Assembly (NCBI GenBank): GCA_023551395.1 | Contig: GCA_023551395.1_3945.1 | DNA length: 64,000 bases | Strand: one strand, 5' to 3' | Source of the DNA: a phage | Shown: positions 15,890 through 53,189 of the stretch, piece after piece | How positions within the stretch are numbered: the first letter of the stretch is position 1 | How the letters are laid out: each line of letters opens with the position of its first letter | The notes under the pieces: model-generated | The model's database searches: none | Seen by the model: the letters and a program-made list of their open reading frames with translations, nothing else | What the model was told of the DNA's origin: nothing | Position numbers and translations under genes: made by a program

Positions 15890-15949
15890 TTTTACTCCCT
15901 CTAAAATCATTAACCTCATACATTACTGCAAAAAATTATAAAAAGCAAG

Positions 15950-15990
15950 TTGACAATGCACTTGACAAGGTGTTAATCTTTGCGAAGTGG
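15950..15990 (+). promoter_or_regulatory. promoter-like element with conserved CTTGACAAGGTG motif
   Basis: Two overlapping TTGACA hexamers in an AT-rich divergent region; the 12-mer CTTGACAAGGTG recurs at 31220 and 61448. Confidence 0.4.
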
Positions 15991-16147
15991 GTTTTTTACT
16001 TAAAAGGTTACTTAACAGTTTAACTATACAGATACTTTAAAACTCTTAAAAGATTATTTAATAGCTTTTAAAAAGCTTTAAAGTATAACGTATAGAATAC
16101 GTTAAGATAAAAGATTAAAACTTAATAGTTACTTAAAAGAGGCTTAC

Positions 16148-40920: not shown

Positions 40921-40945
40921 AGGCTGCTTCGGCGGCCTTTTTTAT
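40921..40945 (+). terminator. Rho-independent terminator
   Basis: GGCTGC-TTCG-GCGGCC hairpin plus TTTTTT; a TATAAT box follows at about 40965. Confidence 0.5.
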
Positions 40946-41004
40946 TTGTATTTTGTGCAGAGTGCTGTATAATTGTTGTCACGATAAACTAAACAGGAGA
41001 ACCA

Positions 41005-41553
41005 ATGAAGAAATTGATTCTAGGTTTGTGCTTAATGTTTACAGCACACTTATCTTATGCAGTTGACTGCCCAGAGCTATCAATTAGCCAAAAAGTAAAC
41101 ATGTTAAAAGCTTACCAGTATGGTGAGAATAACATGGGTAAAGGTTGGGGTATCACTCTAGCTGCTATAGCCTTACAAGAGTCAGAGTTAGGTCTGAAGG
41201 TAGAGAATAAAAAGACACATGATTATGGTATTTTCCAGAATCACTTGAAGACTGTTGTAAAGCGTAACAAAATTAGTCCTAATGTGGCTAAAAAGAAACT
41301 CTTAAGAGACTTTGACTATGCTGCAAAGGAAACGCACAAAGAACTTGAATTTTGGACAAAGGTGCATGGTCAGCCAAAGTCAAAGAAAACTTTACAAAAA
41401 GTTTTAGCATCATATAATGCTGGGTATTCGTACAGAATCCCTAAAGCTAAAAAATATTCTCAAGATGTCTATAACAACATGAAAGTTATCGCTCAATGTG
41501 AATTTGCAACAAACATTTCTAAGGTAAATCATGAAAAAATTAAGAAAGTCTGA
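41005..41553 (+). CDS. lytic transglycosylase (SLT-like) with signal peptide
   Basis: Signal peptide MKKLILGLCLMFTAHLSYA; catalytic-Glu region ALQESELG; AYNAGYS motif. Confidence 0.55.
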   Translation: MKKLILGLCLMFTAHLSYAVDCPELSISQKVNMLKAYQYGENNMGKGWGITLAAIALQESELGLKVENKKTHDYGIFQNHLKTVVKRNKISPNVAKKKLLRDFDYAAKETHKELEFWTKVHGQPKSKKTLQKVLASYNAGYSYRIPKAKKYSQDVYNNMKVIAQCEFATNISKVNHEKIKKV

Positions 41554-42226
41554 TGAAGTACTGTGTCATGCTTATGACTTACATCCTCATGAGTTAGGTC
41601 TTGATTCCTGTGTATGGACTCCAGAACAGTGTAGGGATTTTGAAGACACTGCAAGAGAAGTTGTATGTTCACTTGAAGAGTTTCACACATCAGAGCCAAT
41701 TGTGAATGTTGTAGATAAAGAGACTGGACAAACTATAGGGGTAAGTCGTGATAGTTTAGTCATAGTCAATAAAGACCTTGTAGAAAAAGGTAACCTCATC
41801 TTAGCAGATATTGATGGTGTTCTTACAAATTTTAATCACGAAGATTGCTCAACGGAATTGACTGATGGGTCATTCTCACAGTACACTAATCTTCTTGACT
41901 CTGTAAGAGCAAAACCAACGTATGTTTTTAGTATTATTGATGCAATTGCTAATCATGCTGCCATTGGACTCTTGACAGCGAGAGGTGAATCTCAGAGAAT
42001 ACCTACTGAGATGTTTTTAAGGCATAACATAGAGCATGACTACATGCTTTTTATGCGTGGTTTTGGAACTAACTCTATAAGTGCAGAAAGTTTGAAAGTG
42101 AGGATGATTCAGTCTTGCATCCTGCCTTACTTTAATATAGTATGTTTTATAGAAGACACAGAGAAGAATGTGCAGAAGGTGAACAGAATCCTTCCACACA
42201 TTAAAACCATGTTAGTTAAACATTGA
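41531..42226 (+). CDS. putative 5'(3')-deoxyribonucleotidase-like HAD protein
   Basis: LILADIDGVLTNFN resembles the DxDGVL nucleophile motif, but it lies about 95 aa from the N-terminus, so the call is weak. Confidence 0.35.
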   Translation: MKKLRKSDEVLCHAYDLHPHELGLDSCVWTPEQCRDFEDTAREVVCSLEEFHTSEPIVNVVDKETGQTIGVSRDSLVIVNKDLVEKGNLILADIDGVLTNFNHEDCSTELTDGSFSQYTNLLDSVRAKPTYVFSIIDAIANHAAIGLLTARGESQRIPTEMFLRHNIEHDYMLFMRGFGTNSISAESLKVRMIQSCILPYFNIVCFIEDTEKNVQKVNRILPHIKTMLVKH

Positions 42227-42236
42227 GAGAAAACTT

Positions 42237-42701
42237 ATGAACAATATCATTACGGTAGCACTGGACGATACGGTAAACAAATCCGCAGTAGTTCGTAAAA
42301 TGATTCAAGGTAACTTTGAAGGTAAAATTTTTCGTGCTGTTAATGTAAAAGCTGATGGCAGCATTCGTGAATATCGTGCATTGTTGAACGTTAAGAAGCA
42401 CGTAAAAGGTGTTGGTTCAACGACTGCACACAAAGAAAACCTGATGACTATCTATGATATGGGTAAGGCTTCAGAGTTAGGTGCTGAAGGTATCGTTAAA
42501 GAAGGTGCTCCGTATCGCTCTTTCAATCTGGAAACTACTCTTATGCTTTCCTTTACAAGTGGTTCCAAAACAATCACTTATCTCTTTACTGATGCTGCAA
42601 CGGTATCTGCTATTAAGGATAGCACTGTCAAAGCTGGCGTAGTTGCTGCTGCAAAAGCTTCTTCGATGGCTGCGAATATCCTTGCTAAAGTCCTCGGTTA
42701 A
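42237..42701 (+). CDS. hypothetical protein
   Basis: 154 aa ORF with good RBS. Confidence 0.5.
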   Translation: MNNIITVALDDTVNKSAVVRKMIQGNFEGKIFRAVNVKADGSIREYRALLNVKKHVKGVGSTTAHKENLMTIYDMGKASELGAEGIVKEGAPYRSFNLETTLMLSFTSGSKTITYLFTDAATVSAIKDSTVKAGVVAAAKASSMAANILAKVLG

Positions 42702-42713
42702 GGTTAAGATACA

Positions 42714-42734
42714 GGCTCCTTCGGGAGCCTTTTT
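42714..42734 (+). terminator. Rho-independent terminator
   Basis: GGCTCC-TTCG-GGAGCC hairpin plus TTTTT. Confidence 0.6.
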
Positions 42735-42753
42735 CATTTCAGGAGATTGTTAA

Positions 42754-43101
42754 ATGACATTTAAAGAGTTCTGTCAAGCTACTTTCATAATTGTTTTCTT
42801 AGTTGGGGCGGGTGTCTGGGGAGGGTACTCTTACAGAGACTACCAAGTTGCTGAAACTGAGCTAAACAATCAAAAGCTCATAAGTGTTGCTAAAGATGCT
42901 TATCAGGAAGGATTAGTTACACTGAGCGCCAATTACAAAAATGATTTGAAAGATGTGCTTGCTAAGAATAAGCACACAAAAGAGGTACTAACATATGAAA
43001 AAACTAAGCCAGAGTTTTATAATGTTTGTGTTACTGATAATTATGTCAGGGTGTTCAACGAACAAAGTGAACAGTACATTCAAAAACTCCCAAGTAAGTG
43101 A
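42754..43101 (+). CDS. membrane-anchored periplasmic protein (i-spanin-like candidate)
   Basis: N-terminal TM (FIIVFLVGAGVWGG) then helical domain. Confidence 0.35.
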   Translation: MTFKEFCQATFIIVFLVGAGVWGGYSYRDYQVAETELNNQKLISVAKDAYQEGLVTLSANYKNDLKDVLAKNKHTKEVLTYEKTKPEFYNVCVTDNYVRVFNEQSEQYIQKLPSK

Positions 43102-43264
43102 GAGTGATAAGTACACTCAAGAAGAATCACGGTATATCATCAAAGGCAACACAGGCAGTGATGTAGCAGCAGCACTTGAGTTCTACCGTGACGGCTTTTA
43201 CCAGTGTACAATTAAAGCTAATAACCTTATTGACATGATTTTATTAGGGAATAAGCAGCAATGA
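42995..43264 (+). CDS. lipoprotein encoded out of frame across the 3' end of the preceding gene (o-spanin-like candidate)
   Basis: Signal peptide with lipobox IIMSGCS; overlaps 42754..43101 by about 100 nt in another frame; not proline-rich, so spanin identity is uncertain. Confidence 0.4.
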   Translation: MKKLSQSFIMFVLLIIMSGCSTNKVNSTFKNSQVSESDKYTQEESRYIIKGNTGSDVAAALEFYRDGFYQCTIKANNLIDMILLGNKQQ

Positions 43265-43530
43265 CAGAGAATCAAGACACTTTCTATGTAGAAGGTTACT
43301 TACTGTTGCCACGACCAAAAGAAACTTATATGCGAATCGATTTCTTACCAACCATTATGGATAATGTGATGTGTCATATCTTTATGCAAGGTGTCACAGC
43401 ACAGCTTAAGCATGTTGGTAAAGATTGCAAAATAAAGGTTGACACTCATCCAGAAATCAAAGAGAATCACTACACATGGTTCTTACCAGATTCTAAAGAA
43501 ATCTTAGCAGTTCTTAAAACGAGGAAGTAA
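43261..43530 (+). CDS. hypothetical protein
   Basis: 89 aa ORF. Confidence 0.4.
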   Translation: MTENQDTFYVEGYLLLPRPKETYMRIDFLPTIMDNVMCHIFMQGVTAQLKHVGKDCKIKVDTHPEIKENHYTWFLPDSKEILAVLKTRK

Positions 43531-43532
43531 CT

Positions 43533-43859
43533 ATGCAGATTAATGGAAGAGACTTTGTAGCCGTTTACTACGAGAAAGATAAAGAAGTTGGCGTAGCACA
43601 AGTAACTTACGGCAATGGTAAGTGGCTATATGGAACAATTGCAGTGGTCGGAACAAGAAGTGACACAAAAACTTTTAAAGATTGTGTTGACCTTCTTGAA
43701 GAATCCATTCAGAATCATTGGTGTCTGATATGGATGACTGACAACGAAGTGATAGAACGCTTCAAAAAGATTGATATCAACATTGATAGTATTGAGCATG
43801 TTGATTTATATGAGCTAACTGAGAAGGTAAACTATGAAAGTAATACTAGCCAGAGATAA
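43533..43859 (+). CDS. hypothetical protein
   Basis: 108 aa ORF. Confidence 0.4.
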   Translation: MQINGRDFVAVYYEKDKEVGVAQVTYGNGKWLYGTIAVVGTRSDTKTFKDCVDLLEESIQNHWCLIWMTDNEVIERFKKIDINIDSIEHVDLYELTEKVNYESNTSQR

Positions 43860-44061
43860 AAAGACACGAAAGCTTATCAGGTCAGCAGTGTTCATTGGAC
43901 GAAATGAGGTCATCCCATTTACAGCAAATGATGTGATAGCTTACAGGAAGAACTTAGTATTCACTGACTGCTTACGTGGCTTCATCTCTGAACCATTGGA
44001 AGACTTTAAAAGTCGTTGTGGTAAAGGTATCATCATTCAAGAGGCAATTATTCATGGCTGA
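43834..44061 (+). CDS. hypothetical protein
   Basis: 75 aa ORF with GAGAAGG RBS. Confidence 0.4.
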   Translation: MKVILARDKKTRKLIRSAVFIGRNEVIPFTANDVIAYRKNLVFTDCLRGFISEPLEDFKSRCGKGIIIQEAIIHG

Positions 44062-44254
44062 CTTCTGTAAAGATTGTTCTATCGAAATGTTCGGACGTGA
44101 TACAGGTGACTTAAAAGGTCTTATCACTGAAGATGACTTTAAAGCTGGCTACGCAATGCCAGTAATCTGTGAAGGTTGTGGGTGCATCTGGGTAGACCAC
44201 GAAGGGCAACGTGTAAAACCTTCAGAAGATAAAGAATCTTGGGAGAGATGTTAA
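44054..44254 (+). CDS. small zinc-ribbon protein
   Basis: Start placed at MADFCKDCS (AGAGG RBS upstream); CKDC ... CEGCGC cysteine pairs. Confidence 0.4.
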   Translation: MADFCKDCSIEMFGRDTGDLKGLITEDDFKAGYAMPVICEGCGCIWVDHEGQRVKPSEDKESWERC

Positions 44255-45040
44255 ATGGGTATTGTAAAAATCATCAATGGCGATATCTTTGCAGCATTTG
44301 ATAAAGGTAAGTTTGACATCATTGGTCACGGTTGCAACTGTATGAATTTAATGGGTGCAGGTATCGCTGACAAGATTTCTAAACTTTACCCAAAAGCATA
44401 TGAGACCGATACAGAAGTTTACCTCTATGCAGGTGGTATAGTTCACAAACCCTGTGAAAATCTACTGGGTAATTTCTCTGTAGCACGTTTAGAACAAGGC
44501 CGTATAGCTAACCTTTACACTCAGCTTAAGACTGGTAAAGATGCCCGATACAGTGCTTTAGAGTCATCTTTGAAACAACTTAACAGATACTGTGAAGTCA
44601 ATCAGTTGAAGAAAGTTGGGTTACCTATGATTGGTGCAGGTATCGGTGGACTAGACCCTCAAGCCGTCACAGTTATCATTAATCAGGTGATGAAGAGTGT
44701 AGATGTGTATCTTTATGTCTACGAAGGAGAGATGTACCACAAGTTACGCTCAGGTTGGAAGAACTACTGTGAACCAGAATACTTTGCAGGTGTAGCAGTG
44801 TTCACAGATAACGCAGTTACCCTCTTCAGACGAAGAAAAGGTAAGATACATCAAAGTAACCCTCCGGTTGAAAAGATGTCTCTAAGTAACGCTCTAGTTA
44901 CCCACCTGTCGAAGAGCAATCACAGGATTGCAGTAACATTTGGCAGTGATGCAGATACTTATATCTATGCAAGAACTGATGAGGATATCGAGACAGTTTT
45001 CTCTTCACCAGAAGTTACCTTCTTAGACGCAAAGAACTAA
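44255..45040 (+). CDS. macro-domain (ADP-ribose-binding/processing) protein
   Basis: N-terminal IINGDIF...IIGHGCNCMNLMGAGIADKI and later GLPMIGAGIGGLDP match the macro-domain glycine-rich loops. Confidence 0.5.
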   Translation: MGIVKIINGDIFAAFDKGKFDIIGHGCNCMNLMGAGIADKISKLYPKAYETDTEVYLYAGGIVHKPCENLLGNFSVARLEQGRIANLYTQLKTGKDARYSALESSLKQLNRYCEVNQLKKVGLPMIGAGIGGLDPQAVTVIINQVMKSVDVYLYVYEGEMYHKLRSGWKNYCEPEYFAGVAVFTDNAVTLFRRRKGKIHQSNPPVEKMSLSNALVTHLSKSNHRIAVTFGSDADTYIYARTDEDIETVFSSPEVTFLDAKN

Positions 45041-45106
45041 GAAACTCTGTAGGATATTCACAATAGCCTAAGCCTTTCTTATCTGGTAAATTTTTCAGGT
45101 AAGGAG

Positions 45107-45405
45107 GGCTTTTTCATTTCAGAATTGTGCAGGTAGAGTTCTGTAGAGAAATCTGTAGAGAGAATTTTGAACTCCAAAGAGAAAATTCATTTTCAAACTG
45201 TGCAGATAATCTCCAAAGAGCTTTTTCATTTTCAAAACGTGCAGACCACACTCAGGTCGGGCAAGAAAAATCATTTTAGATTTGTGCAGGTAGGTTTTTA
45301 TAGAGAGCCAGACCAACCCCTCTCCCCCTCTTACTCCCCCTCTCCCCAAAAGTCAAGAGAAAAATTTGTAGCGGATTGAAAAATAATTCTTGATTTGTGT
45401 TCTGT
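45107..45405 (+). repeat. array of about 5 direct repeats, consensus TTTTCATTTTCAAAACGTGCAG
   Basis: Copies near 45107, 45177, 45219, 45262 and a degenerate one near 45375; ORFs drawn here by the track are probably spurious. Confidence 0.6.
45314..45348 (-). other. G-quadruplex-capable tract (G-rich on minus strand)
   Basis: Plus strand CCCCTCTCCCCCTCTTACTCCCCCTCTCCCC gives four G-runs of 4 or more on the minus strand. Confidence 0.4.
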
Positions 45406-45469
45406 TTTGTGGTAGTCGTGTGCGCCCGTTTCATTACAGTTTTGCCAAAAATATTTTTAAAATTTTTTC

Positions 45470-45529
45470 TTGACTCTTTGAACGTGGTTATCTAGTATTT
45501 GCATCAACGGGGAGGGAATGACCTTCCCC
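45470..45529 (+). promoter_or_regulatory. sigma70-like promoter plus conserved leader hairpin (type A module)
   Basis: TTGACT-17 nt-TAGTAT, then ATCAACGG and hairpin GGGGAGGG-AATGA-CCTTCCCC, then ACTAAATAAAGTCCTAAACTGGAGATTCAAAAATG. Confidence 0.6.
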
Positions 45530-45561
45530 ACTAAATAAAGTCCTAAACTGGAGATTCAAAA

Positions 45562-45945
45562 ATGGCATATCGTGCACCTAAATTCATCAACAAAGACAAC
45601 TTTCGCAACGCACTGGAGAAGTCACTTGATGAGAATTTTAAAGGTAACATTATCGTTGTTCACGCATTCAATTTTAAGTATGATGTAAACGGGAATAGAA
45701 TCAACCATTACACGGCAACCATGTTAGATGGTACACTTTCAAGTGAAAAAGCCGTACTAAATGCACTGGCAGGACGTGGAAAGGTATTAGTAAGATGTGA
45801 TAAGAGACGTTATCAGGGCGGCGCATATGGTTATGATGATGCTGTTTACCATCTTGAAAATATGGGCTATCAAGTAGAAAAAGCTGGAGCATCACAAATC
45901 ATCGGCAGCGATGGTTATGTAACTATCTTCAAAATTAACAAATAA
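45562..45945 (+). CDS. hypothetical small protein (cluster gene 1)
   Basis: 127 aa; type A leader upstream. Confidence 0.5.
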   Translation: MAYRAPKFINKDNFRNALEKSLDENFKGNIIVVHAFNFKYDVNGNRINHYTATMLDGTLSSEKAVLNALAGRGKVLVRCDKRRYQGGAYGYDDAVYHLENMGYQVEKAGASQIIGSDGYVTIFKINK

Positions 45946-47638: not shown

Positions 47639-47695
47639 CACTGGTTTTTAGATAGATTAAATTACACATCAACGGGGAGGGAATGACCTTCCCCA
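47635..47695 (+). promoter_or_regulatory. sigma70-like promoter plus type A leader hairpin
   Basis: TTGACA-17 nt-TAAATT, then ACACATCAACGGGGAGGGAATGACCTTCCCC. Confidence 0.6.
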
Positions 47696-51589: not shown

Positions 51590-51616
51590 AAAGCTCCTTC
51601 TCATAGGGGCTTTTTT
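51590..51616 (+). terminator. Rho-independent terminator ending the small-gene cluster
   Basis: Hairpin followed by TTTTTT at 51607-51616. Confidence 0.45.
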
Positions 51617-51619
51617 ACG

Positions 51620-53180
51620 TCTATTGAATCATTATACAATCCCTTTCCCTCACCTTTCCAGAATCTTATCAGACCTTAAAAGCAATAACTCTATAGTCTA
51701 CTCTATAACCTTTTATCAAATCAACTTAAATAAAAGCCAATAACCCCAGAAAGGGGATGGCCCATTTAAACGCTCTATAAAGCTCTATAACAGCCTTATC
51801 AACCTAACTTAAGGGATTGCATTAACCAACCTTAAAAAGCTCTTTACAGGGCTTTATAGAGGCTTAAAAGAATCTTATAAGGTTATAAGCTTTATTATCT
51901 CGTTAGCTATCTTGTGAACTACTAAAAAGGGCTTGTTATTGTCTTAAAAGTATGTTATATGGGCTTTAAAGTTACTTTGAAGTAGCTTAAAAGTTACGTA
52001 AATGCTAGCCCCCTTAACATTTTCTTAACAATTTCTTAACAAACCCTACATAGTTATGCTTTTAAGGCACTTGTTAGCAACTTGTTAGTCCCTTGTTAAA
52101 TCTCTGTTAAGACCACGTAAAAGCCTTGTAAGAGTCTTTGACATAGCCTTTAAAGCCCCTGTAAAGCCCTATAAAGAGGTATCTGTACAGTTGGGGGGTA
52201 GATACTAGGAAGAGACTTAAAAGAGCTTACAAGGAGCTATAGAGAGCTTTTAAGAGGTATGTTTAAAGAATCACTAAGAAAGGAAAGGGAACGATAAGAA
52301 AAGAGATAGTGACCATGTTAATAGCTTGTTAAAAAGATTAAACACTTGTTAGAGACTTGTTAATTATCTTAACAAAATAACTCTTAAAAATTAACTTGTT
52401 AGCTCTTGTTAGCCATCTGTTAAGACTCTGTAAAGCCTATGTATCAACTGTTAAGAAACTGTTACGCTCTTGTTAGTTCTGTTGAGAATCTGTTAAGACC
52501 TTTGAAGAGATGTTAAGGAGATGTGAGAACTGTTAAGAGATTGTTAAGGATATTTTAAAATTTTGCAAAGTACTTGTAAGGGAGCTGTTAAGGGCTACCA
52601 AGCAGATATACATCTTCTACAGATATTTTTCAGTTCCTTCAAAGACCCTAAAAAATGACTTGATAGTCCTATTTTATAAAAATTTTAAAAATCTGAATAA
52701 TTACCTATACAGTCTTTCTAAAATACAGGTAATAACAGGCTTATAAGATACCTTGTTAGTACCGTGTTAGACCTTGTGAGATAAGGTCTGTAAAGATATT
52801 CCTGTTAAGTTTGTTAAAACAGTCTATATAGAGGCTTAGTAATACCTAGTGAACACCTATAGAGAGTGTCATAGCTAACCTAGAGATTAAGAGGTGTATA
52901 GGAGCTTCTAAGAGGGTATAGAAAGATGGTTAAGGTGATTGTATAGGTTGTTAAGAAGGCTTGTTAGAGGGCTTGTTAGAAGGGTTATACAGAGGGCTAT
53001 TAAGACCACTAGATAGATACTAAGATACTATATAGTACTATATAACTATATATAGAGAGTAAGCTTAAGAAGGTTGTTAAGAAGGGTAGATATTTTGTTC
53101 ACATATGATGGTGACCCAGAGGTTGGGACAACCGATAAAAATTTTATAAAAATTAAAAAGCCCCCAATTAAGGAGGCTCT
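51620..53180. repeat. 1.5 kb ORF-free region with dense short direct repeats
   Basis: More than 25 copies of (C)TTGTTAG / CTGTTAAGA / TGTTAAG at 9-12 bp spacing (densest 52040-52120, 52320-52560, 52740-52800, 52920-52990), plus repeated CTATAAAG/CTTTATAGA motifs; lies between convergent gene blocks. Confidence 0.7.
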
Positions 53181-53189
53181 TAAGATATT

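Follow-up and report, generated by a model that had tools for sequence, protein, structure and literature searches.

What occupies the 521-bp ORF-free spacer (45041-45561) that separates a macro-domain gene on its left from a run of small + strand genes starting at 45562 on its right? The question arises from a 64,000-nt stretch of phage DNA, in the following called the window, for which an initial annotation had described an array of direct repeats and a G-quadruplex (G4)-capable tract in this spacer, and had read the two together as a regulator-binding region or transcriptional switch that controls entry into the small-gene cluster. Array and tract both lie within the spacer. The 3 kb around the array are 99.8% identical to Escherichia phage vB_EcoM_LMP33 (E. 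coli phage LMP33) and match 257 phage records, nearly all of which are Felix-O1-like (Felixounavirus, subfamily Ounavirinae), and this similarity places the window in Felixounavirus. Felix O1 is among the classic phages for the typing of Salmonella, and many phage cocktails make use of its relatives. With a G+C content of 37-42%, the genome is AT-rich, as the initial annotation had it. Between 40 and 56 kb of the window there are two ORF-free gaps of at least 500 bp, namely the spacer and the terminal region.

The macro-domain gene is the final gene of a conserved upstream operon (41005-45040), and the array comes next in every lineage examined. Its 261-aa product carries the Macro domain at the N-terminus (Pfam PF01661, E=1e-7). 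The operon further contains genes for a signal-peptide protein, a Pnk-like protein, Rz-like spanins and a protein with a distant homologue that bears an RNA-ligase domain. In an annotated relative, this operon belongs to a single long + strand arm that runs from the primase-helicase via nucleotide metabolism and rIIA/rIIB to the macro gene, and then on through the spacer and about a dozen small genes to the right end. The direct terminal repeat lies at 52008-52599, about 6.7 kb downstream of the array. It was placed there with the E9 record, a relative ordered by PhageTerm, both ends of which are identical over 580 bp and map to these positions; the published terminal repeats of relatives measure 581 bp by PhageTerm and 608 bp by Bal31 digestion with run-off sequencing. 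With the 580-bp repeat at this distance, the idea that the spacer itself is a genome terminus or pac site was ruled out.

Four direct repeats in an ORF-free spacer

Read along the + strand, the spacer contains the terminator, unit 1 of the array, a set of mini-repeats, units 2 to 4, the C-rich tract, a leftward and then a rightward promoter-like element, an A/T-only stretch, a consensus promoter and its leader. These features are listed here together with the gene to their left and a candidate site further upstream.

40937-40973, + strand: candidate isolated fifth unit, CTTTTTTATTTGTATTTTGTGCAGAG, with TATAAT (PWM, 16.2 bits in the window)
44255-45040, + strand: macro-domain ('phosphatase'/Tk.4-like) gene, 261 aa (Pfam PF01661, PHROG 335, synteny)
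45070-45111, + strand: predicted strong intrinsic terminator of the upstream operon, 17-bp stem and T run (annotated in ASO1A and AYO145A)
45109-45134, + strand: unit 1, CTTTTTCATTTCAGAATTGTGCAGGT (PWM, 34.6 bits)
45129-45166, + strand: three phased 12-bp mini-repeats, GCAGGTAGAGTT, CTGTAGAGAAAT and CTGTAGAGAGAA (repeat search)
45182-45207, + strand: unit 2, AAAATTCATTTTCAAACTGTGCAGAT (PWM, 34.4 bits)
45221-45246, + strand: unit 3, CTTTTTCATTTTCAAAACGTGCAGAC (PWM, 32.3 bits)
45266-45291, + strand: unit 4, AAAAATCATTTTAGATTTGTGCAGGT (PWM, 32.0 bits)
45317-45347, G-rich on the - strand: G4-capable tract, CCCCTCTCCCCCTCTTACTCCCCCTCTCCCC (+ strand letters, C-rich; G-run search and G4Hunter)
45328-45356, - strand: leftward promoter-like element TTGACT-N17-TAAGAG (sequence reading and conservation table)
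45390-45418, + strand: rightward promoter-like element with TTGATT (45390-45395), a 17-nt spacer ending in TGG, and TAGTCG (sequence and conservation)
45470-45498, + strand: first consensus sigma-70 promoter of the small-gene cluster, TTGACT-N17-TAGTAT (promoter scan; annotated in ASO1A)

The array consists of four 26-bp direct repeats, all on the + strand and beginning at 45109, 45182, 45221 and 45266, with the consensus W5-TCATTTYnrAnnYGTGCAkr; the repeat search had returned families of 22-36 nt. The existence of direct repeats thus stands, the four being far above chance, whereas the size and number given by the initial annotation, about 22 bp and about five copies, had to be revised to 26 bp and four. 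What had been taken for a fifth copy (GAAAAATAATTCTTGATTTGTG, about 45378-45399) has no more than its A/T-rich 5′ portion in common with unit 4; it has no GTGCA core, scores below 12 bits and is the -35 region of the TTGATT promoter-like element. A uniform spacing of about 40 bp was not recovered either, the measured distances from unit to unit being 73, 39 and 45 bp. By contrast, the location assigned to the array, between a macro-domain gene (that with PF01661) and the first cluster promoter (45470-45498), was correct.

The units are unique in the genome. A search of the 64 kb with the pattern TCATTTTCAAANNGTGCAG, allowing up to three mismatches, gave six matches against 0.5 expected, four of the six lying in the array, and not one of 100 shuffles reached six. 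A PWM derived from 25 distinct units of several genera assigned 32-35 bits to the four units, but at most 20.8 bits to any other site in the 64 kb, such that the search for the motif elsewhere in the window yielded no comparable site; the top score over 20 shuffled windows was 19.6 bits. The complete genome of the related SLAM_phiST56 has no site above 17 bits apart from its own four units.

Within the units, the TCATTT and GTGCA blocks are invariant and lie about 11-12 bp apart. As to the W5 part, units 1 and 3 have CTTTTT there and units 2 and 4 have AAAAWT, such that only its A/T richness is retained. This layout suggests, by inference, an asymmetric protein site that is contacted in two successive major grooves and in a narrow minor groove. 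Unit 1 begins on the T run of the terminator, which makes up its first six bases, i.e., its W5 part. The mini-repeats occupy the long gap between units 1 and 2, and are present in a variant form in ECML-1 and Si3. Further to the right, an A/T-only, UP-like stretch (about 45446-45469) precedes the cluster promoter, which is followed by a hairpin-containing leader that recurs before many of the cluster genes (BLAST matches at 45503, 47668, 48534, 49710, 50308 and others).

Several identities for the repeats were examined and discarded. Small ORFs have been annotated over the array in several records, but all frames are stopped within it in the window, Felix O1, VpaE1, SLAM_phiST56, SUSP2, phiEa21-4 and the lineage of the metagenomic contig L030; no single frame is open across the lineages, and the unit spacings are in most of them not multiples of 3. 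A general class of promoters was rejected as well, because there is just one extra weak site per genome. In a sigma-70 test (16-18 bp spacing, A at -11, T at -7), none of the four units was called on the + strand, and the lone minus-strand promoter match at the units (TTGAAA-N18-GATTAT, 45235-45206) is lineage-specific; a TATAAT is carried by the isolated site at 40937 only. With respect to host factors, the array contained no match to the consensuses tested, those of DnaA, IHF, the marbox, CRP, LexA, sigma-54, Fis and Ter. By eye, unit 3 bears some resemblance to the mar marbox and to the Mu-end consensus, which the other units do not, and its spacing differs from that of the marbox by 1 nt. 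The neighbouring genes were also considered as the source of a partner protein; those scanned gave no DNA-binding domain, and they look like a mix of RNA-repair and lysis functions (Pnk-like, RNA-ligase-like, spanin-like, macro).

Conservation of the array and of the G-run tract

Felixounavirus, Suspvirus, Mooglevirus and Kolesnikvirus all have the array in the corresponding spacer, as does one metagenomic lineage, and the number of units is three to five. A distant BLASTN search with the spacer returned 292 records. In Kolesnikvirus (phages of Erwinia, Hafnia and Salmonella), the sole alignable part of the spacer is query 146-248, which corresponds to units 2-4. Erwinia phage phiEa21-4, for instance, has four units, spaced 37/37/39 bp, after the terminator of the macro/Tk.4 gene, and its unit 3 is nearly identical to unit 4 of the window. 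The spacing is genus-specific (73/39/45, 75/41/45 or 37/37/39), and in an alignment of 12 spacers from four genera the unit cores are invariant, while the sequence between the units diverges. Measured as majority identity over 32 distinct sequences, conservation amounts to 0.91 in the unit cores versus 0.71-0.87 in the inter-unit segments. For the adjacent macro gene, the values at codon positions 1, 2 and 3 are 0.85, 0.87 and 0.75, and even its first two positions are thus less conserved than the unit cores. In the aligned spacers, the array is among the most conserved non-coding blocks.

Arrays of three units occur in the isolates ECML-1 and Si3 and in the metagenomic contig L057, and an array of five units directly follows the macro-domain gene in an IMG/VR contig of ~88 kb (L030/L147). 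When this contig was compared with the phage collection, there was no nucleotide match, the flanks of the array included. At least eight TTAACA repeats with a period of ~11 bp come directly after the array in its lineage, and TTAACA is the motif that fills this lineage's own terminal region. Homologues of four genes of the upstream operon are retained beside the array, whereas the ~14 small genes downstream of it have no detectable homologue in the window. Since operon and array are kept here and the cluster is not, the array travels with the upstream operon and not with the small-gene cluster. Given this linkage and the position of the units 180-360 bp upstream of the first cluster promoter, control of entry into the cluster, as proposed by the initial annotation, is not borne out; among the other cluster promoters, which were scanned with the PWM, none bears a unit. 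A scan of IMG/VR for a two-unit pattern gave contigs of 51-90 kb only. The pattern scan of the metagenomes mainly returned unrelated tandem repeats, and a PWM filter was applied, after which full arrays were found only on contigs of 81-89 kb or on short fragments. In 5,426 E. coli genomes, there were no copies of the unit.

The G4-capable tract has a different history. As a sequence pattern it is exactly what had been described: the minus strand reads GGGG AGA GGGGG AGTAAGA GGGGG AGA GGGG, with loops of 3, 7 and 3 nt, which agrees with the definition of a canonical intramolecular G4 (four runs of at least three G, loops of 1-7 nt). It is the only motif in the window with four G runs of at least 4. 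G4 prediction gave a G4Hunter score of -2.36, the most extreme in the 64 kb, and the only other segment that reaches an absolute value of 2.0 (42801-42826) lies within an ORF. The calculated fold energy is -28.8 kcal/mol with G4 energies versus -16.1 kcal/mol without them (RNA parameters).

However, with a majority identity of 0.62, compared to 0.91 for the unit cores, the tract is conserved less than any other block of the spacer. Out of 31 distinct sequences past unit 4, about 12, among them VpaE1, AYO145A and SLAM_phiST56, carry a different allele of unrelated sequence (GGGTGCAGGTGGGGATGTCGCCATTTCTCACAAGGCTACC..., here allele B), and in 12 of the 31 a motif with four runs of at least three C is missing. 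Allele B scores only +1.1 to +1.2 in G4Hunter, and on the opposite strand. Among the more distant relatives, the metagenomic L057 has a score of +2.24 on the + strand and Kolesnikvirus one of -1.6, and no G/C-run tract was found past the last unit in the L030 lineage. In most lineages, the last unit is succeeded by some tract of G or C runs, of which there are three sequence forms that vary in strand, sequence and strength, and viable isolates exist with either allele, i.e., also with no canonical motif. Given the 12 of 31 sequences that have no such motif, the low identity, and the strand flips and absence in relatives, G4 potential is not a conserved property of the orthologous site. The G4-capable sequence is real, yet to judge by these alignments it is poorly conserved and dispensable in natural isolates. 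The tract was also considered as a rut site on the + strand RNA (~70-80 nt, C-rich and G-poor), and this was discarded: it is only 31 nt long, a 78-nt window at the tract is not among the top C/G windows, and allele B is G-rich on the + strand.

A possible boundary block at the end of the upstream operon

In this context, a candidate site at the other end of the upstream operon deserves attention. CTTTTTTATTTGTATTTTGTGCAGAG, at 40937-40962, directly follows the rIIB terminator and is itself followed by TATAAT (40968-40973) and then by the operon's first gene; it overlaps the -35 region and spacer of the promoter heading the operon that ends at the array, 4.2 kb upstream of the latter. In the window, its score of 16.2 bits is within chance. 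In L057 and in Mooglevirus contigs, however, the orthologous site has a score of 23.8-26.5 bits. The promoter there has the form TTGAAA-N16-TATAAT or TTTGCA-N17-TATAAT, and the unit covers the -35 region and the spacer; in Mooglevirus, the isolated unit abuts the rIIB terminator and overlaps TTGAAA-N16-TATAAT. In the 5.8 kb upstream of the array at a Kolesnikvirus locus, an isolated unit was not found. If the site is real, the promoter of this operon and its 3′ end would be contacted by one and the same protein, which is suggestive only.

We consider it quite probable that one sequence-specific protein binds the units at the DNA level. More tentatively, at somewhat less than an even chance, we favor a reading in which the array forms a nucleoprotein block with a boundary or regulatory role where the upstream operon meets the terminal gene block. 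The four units would be cis-acting sites for one DNA-binding protein, either phage-encoded or contributed by the host. The A/T tract of each unit (T5 or A5) would provide a minor-groove or bending contact, and TCATTT and GTGCA, about one helical turn apart, would form an asymmetric site of a monomer-type or head-to-tail kind. Once bound, the units might assemble into a nucleoprotein block that starts on the terminator T run of the upstream operon, and at the terminator such a block could halt RNA polymerase or modulate it. Combined with the single unit at the operon promoter, the array could place the two operon ends under a common regulator. This device would not require the G4-capable tract. 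The repeats, their uniqueness in the genome, their conservation in one orientation throughout the subfamily, their linkage to the upstream operon and the absence of a coding or RNA-structure signal are observations, and that a protein binds here, what it might be and how it could affect transcription are inferred.

This reading is favored because unit 1 abuts the terminator, because the array is flanked by promoter-like elements, because it is linked to the upstream operon, and because a unit lies over the operon promoter in some lineages. The earlier idea of a regulator-binding region keeps its first half: it fits the repeats, which are asymmetric, bipartite and under stronger constraint than the adjacent coding sequence, whereas the G4 tract no longer qualifies as their conserved partner. 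Several points speak against a boundary block. A binder was found neither among the neighbouring genes scanned nor by way of the host-factor consensuses tested. The distance of the units from the first cluster promoter, and their absence from the others, would be odd for a promoter regulator. Furthermore, the extra unit at the operon promoter reaches only 16 bits in the window and was not found in the 5.8 kb upstream of the array at a Kolesnikvirus locus, and a roadblock needs fewer than four sites.

The closest known parallels are arrays of operators and auxiliary operators, as in multi-site repressor regions and in roadblock-assisted termination. Like these, the array lies between a terminator and promoters, has an extra site over the -35 region and spacer of a promoter, and is made of bipartite sites that span two major grooves. 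It differs from them in that most of its sites are far from consensus promoters and none is found at the dozen promoters of the cluster. An array of short direct repeats that serve as binding sites is thus of a familiar kind, while the array as a specific element appears to be undescribed. In the Felix O1 genome paper, whose list of repeats is confined to exact ones of at least 24 bp, it goes unmentioned; the same paper states the timing of transcription as not known. The papers searched, mostly outside subscription journals, contained nothing on the spacer, be it a transcript, a footprint or a mutant, and no mapping of a replication origin for Felix O1. The accessible part of the Bas63 knockout screen reports no intergenic data for the spacer.

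A protein that binds the array would likely matter for gene timing, replication or DNA entry across the subfamily. The array itself offers a 26-bp bait for the binder as well as a short target for deletion.

Alternative roles of the array and of the tract

The main rival to a boundary block is a replication origin. In this case, the units would be iterons for an initiator, and the divergent promoter-like elements, the A/T stretch and the G-run tract would serve in activation, unwinding or the formation of an R-loop primer, with T4 oriE or lambda ori as models. T4 oriE combines an early promoter with iterons. As in lambda ori, P1 oriR, RK2 oriV and T4 oriE with its RepEB, there are several asymmetric direct repeats of about 20-26 bp in one orientation, and where at least three such repeats of about 17-22 bp are expected of iterons, four of ~26 bp are present on the + strand of the window and three to five in the different lineages. 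As with iterons, the repeats lie in a non-coding spacer, here an ORF-free gap of at least 500 bp, beside A/T-rich DNA and promoters, the promoter-like elements being divergent and conserved. There is no comparable site in the genome, and in allele A, the form of the tract other than allele B, the G runs are located just downstream of the leftward promoter-like element, which would make its RNA G-rich.

Nevertheless, we regard an origin as unlikely. The spacing of 37-75 bp contrasts with the about 22 bp of classical iterons, and the replisome is T7-like: the primase-helicase has Toprim plus DnaB_C domains only and resembles T7 gp4, with no origin-binding domain. No initiator gene and no defined unwinding element were found; Rep-, O- or DnaA-type domains are absent from the 14 neighbouring and replication proteins scanned, a set that includes a minority of the small ORFs, and the DnaA box TTWTNCACA does not occur on either strand of 45041-45561. 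Furthermore, the array is situated inside a long co-directional transcription arm, such that forks starting from it would run head-on into a + strand transcription unit of 30 kb. A more conventional place for an origin would be the divergent Pol/primase spacer at about 15.9-16.1 kb, and many relatives either lack the G-run tract or have it on the other strand.

A further possibility, which we hold to be quite improbable, is that the array marks the inner edge of the right-terminal part of the genome and holds or pauses the DNA there during entry, or acts in the biology of the genome end. The model for this is T5, where the conserved untranslated repeat region 3, at 7.9% of the genome, has been proposed to be the injection stop signal (Davison, bioRxiv 10.1101/866236). 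The array of the window lies about 7.3 kb from the right end, i.e., about 8% of the ~88-kb genome, and the terminal block of small genes downstream of it comprises 5.5-7 kb. In four lineages, one of them with an unrelated gene cluster, the array is found 5.5-6.8 kb upstream of the terminal ORF-free region. Similar to T5 region 3, it consists of conserved non-coding repeats at ~8% from one end and at the inner edge of a small-gene block, and both are better conserved than the surrounding genes. The terminal 1.6 kb of the window are crowded with CTTGTTA, CTGTTAAG and CTTAACA repeats, to which the 12-bp repeats between units 1 and 2 bear a loose resemblance, and the TTAACA repeats that directly follow the L030 array are its terminal-region motif.

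Against this, the spacer has simple direct repeats and, unlike T5, neither DnaA boxes nor long inverted repeats, and the terminal repeat of the genome measures 0.6 kb, compared to 10 kb in T5. For T5, the mechanism has itself only been proposed, the papers searched contained no report of two-step entry for Felix-O1-like phages, and the similar distance to the end could simply reflect similar gene content. At the inner boundary of the left terminal cluster, there was no matching array. A more specific form, in which the array together with the adjacent terminal-type short repeats would delimit a terminal DNA domain that is separate physically or in function, appears more improbable still. If it were true, a T5-like stop or hold, for example, could let the right-terminal ~8%, the small-gene block, act first, and this in a family of myoviruses that is not known for such behaviour.

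It is very improbable that the array acts at the RNA level, as a repeat-containing non-coding RNA or a protein sponge that is transcribed leftward (from 45328-45356) or by read-through. The TTGACT of the leftward element (reverse complement of 45351-45356) and its N17 spacing are conserved, allele B has an extended -10 at this place (TGg-TAGCCT), and for leftward transcription the terminator has no T run. However, the -10 of the window (TAAGAG, reverse complement of 45328-45333) is without the critical T, and as it has no T at -7, the element was not called by the promoter scan. The change of the W5 part between T5 and A5 would alter an RNA, but not the geometry of a duplex. Moreover, a structured RNA was ruled out, with no Rfam matches at E<=1 and folding no better than that of shuffled sequences (z = -0.83 and +0.47 for the two strands).

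Harder still to credit is a switch in the sense of the initial annotation, in the form of a G-quadruplex (or i-motif) that would gate transcription of the cluster, with the repeats as an accessory. It can draw on the strongest G4 propensity of the 64 kb, on the gain in fold energy and on the recurrence of a G- or C-run tract after the last unit in most lineages. Unlike what would be expected of such a switch, the tract is the block of the spacer with the least conservation, has a weak allele on the opposite strand in about 12 of 31 sequences and is absent in the L030 lineage; in addition, it lies 120 bp upstream of the consensus promoter, and phages with either allele are viable. The least probable explanation of all is that the repeats are decayed tandem duplications of a terminator tail or promoter fragment and have no function, because even though the 5′ half of the units resembles a terminator T run, that of unit 1 being one, and the single extra unit is part of a promoter, the cores surpass the non-synonymous positions of the neighbouring gene in conservation over four genera while the sequence between them drifts, and the units persist in a lineage without any similarity of the flanks.

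Three assemblies stop inside the tract, namely the LMP34 record and the IMG/VR contigs L021 and L026, the last of which runs into Nextera adapter. As the site is polymorphic and rich in homopolymers, we attribute these ends to problems of assembly or coverage, and not to biology. The natural phages with and without the G4-capable tract provide a ready-made comparison.

The operon upstream of the array and the small-gene cluster behind it

The array of four 26-bp direct repeats (units) lies between two groups of genes, the first of which is an operon that ends with the macro-domain gene and encodes, among others, the proteins listed here together with the modules of the second group.

41005-45040, operon upstream of the array: polynucleotide-kinase-like protein (PHROG 3970)
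41005-45040, same operon: 154-aa protein with a distant homologue that contains an RNA-ligase domain (PF09414)
41005-45040, same operon: macro/phosphatase protein
45470-45561, and again near 47668, 48534, 49710, 50308 and 50905: module made up of a promoter, a GC hairpin and a ribosome-binding site

In this operon, genes for Rz-like spanins are interleaved with the kinase-like, ligase-related and macro/phosphatase genes. Because proteins of the latter three kinds are combined here, the gene mix suggests an RNA-repair module. The macro-domain gene itself contains two adjacent 27-nt direct repeats (44843-44899; 74% identical, 30 bp apart), which fall in its C-terminal, non-macro half, and it is the C-terminal half of the protein that is missing from a 148-aa homologue in the metagenomic lineage of locus L030.

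The small-gene cluster (45.5-51.6 kb) varies in gene content among close relatives. Ahead of each small gene stands the module listed above, in nearly identical form every time, an arrangement that brings to mind the promoter-early stem-loop cassettes known from T4-type phages.

The metagenomic loci L030 and L147 represent a phage lineage of about 88 kb (IMGVR_UViG_3300045988_063805, 88,375 bp; the assembly is circular, as shown by a 55-nt overlap between the two ends of the contig). Its order is a Dam-like methylase, the macro gene, five units, TTAACA repeats and then about 14 small genes, which are unrelated and are followed by a terminal-type repeat region. The layout is the same as in the window, despite an 871-bp spacer segment for which no nucleotide match was found in the phage collection.

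Unit-like and G-rich sequences

Immediately 3′ of the rIIB terminator there is a further unit-like sequence (40937-40973), which overlaps a promoter whose TATAAT is perfect. This site is weak in the window (16 bits against the weight matrix built from the units), and the orthologous site, found in the same place in Mooglevirus and a metagenomic relative, reaches 24-26 bits.

Within Felixounavirus, the segment that follows unit 4 (45292-45350; loci L007, L016, L036 and L057) exists as two unrelated alleles. One is C-rich; the other reads GGGTGCAGGTGGGG... and has its G runs on the opposite strand. The leftward promoter-like element has an extended -10 (TGg-TAGCCT) in the GGGTGCAGGTGGGG allele and in this form mirrors the rightward element. 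The C-rich tract is also where three independent assemblies stop, namely the LMP34 record (H76) and the metagenomic loci L021 and L026, the contig end of L026 running on into Nextera adapter sequence. These stops are probably artefacts of assembly or coverage, at a site that is polymorphic and rich in homopolymers.

Besides this tract, a single segment of the window reaches a G4Hunter score of 2.0 or more, and it lies inside the ORF of an Rz-like spanin (42754-43101).

42801-42826 (+), G4Hunter segment: GGGGCGGGTGTCTGGGGAGGG

The terminal region, a divergent spacer and short palindromes

51605-53189, ORF-free region of 1.6 kb that contains the direct terminal repeat
52008-52599, direct terminal repeat of about 580 bp, placed here because both ends of the E9 record, from a relative, match there
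15920-16147, A/T-rich divergent spacer, with the DNA polymerase gene on one side and the + strand arm on the other

The ORF-free region is crowded with CTTGTTA, CTGTTAAG and CTTAACA motifs at a period of 11-12 bp. Several CTTAAAAG/CTTTAAAG motifs resembling those of the terminal region are found in the divergent spacer, along with two TTGACA hexamers. The spacer is a candidate of the conventional kind, either for an origin or for a region of divergent promoters.

With respect to short palindromes, GATC does not occur once in the 64 kb of the window (1-64000), as opposed to about 224 occurrences expected from base composition. Over the same 64 kb, CCGG and CGCG are depleted to 0.17 of expectation, and TGCA, at 1.67 times expectation, is the most over-represented 4-bp palindrome.
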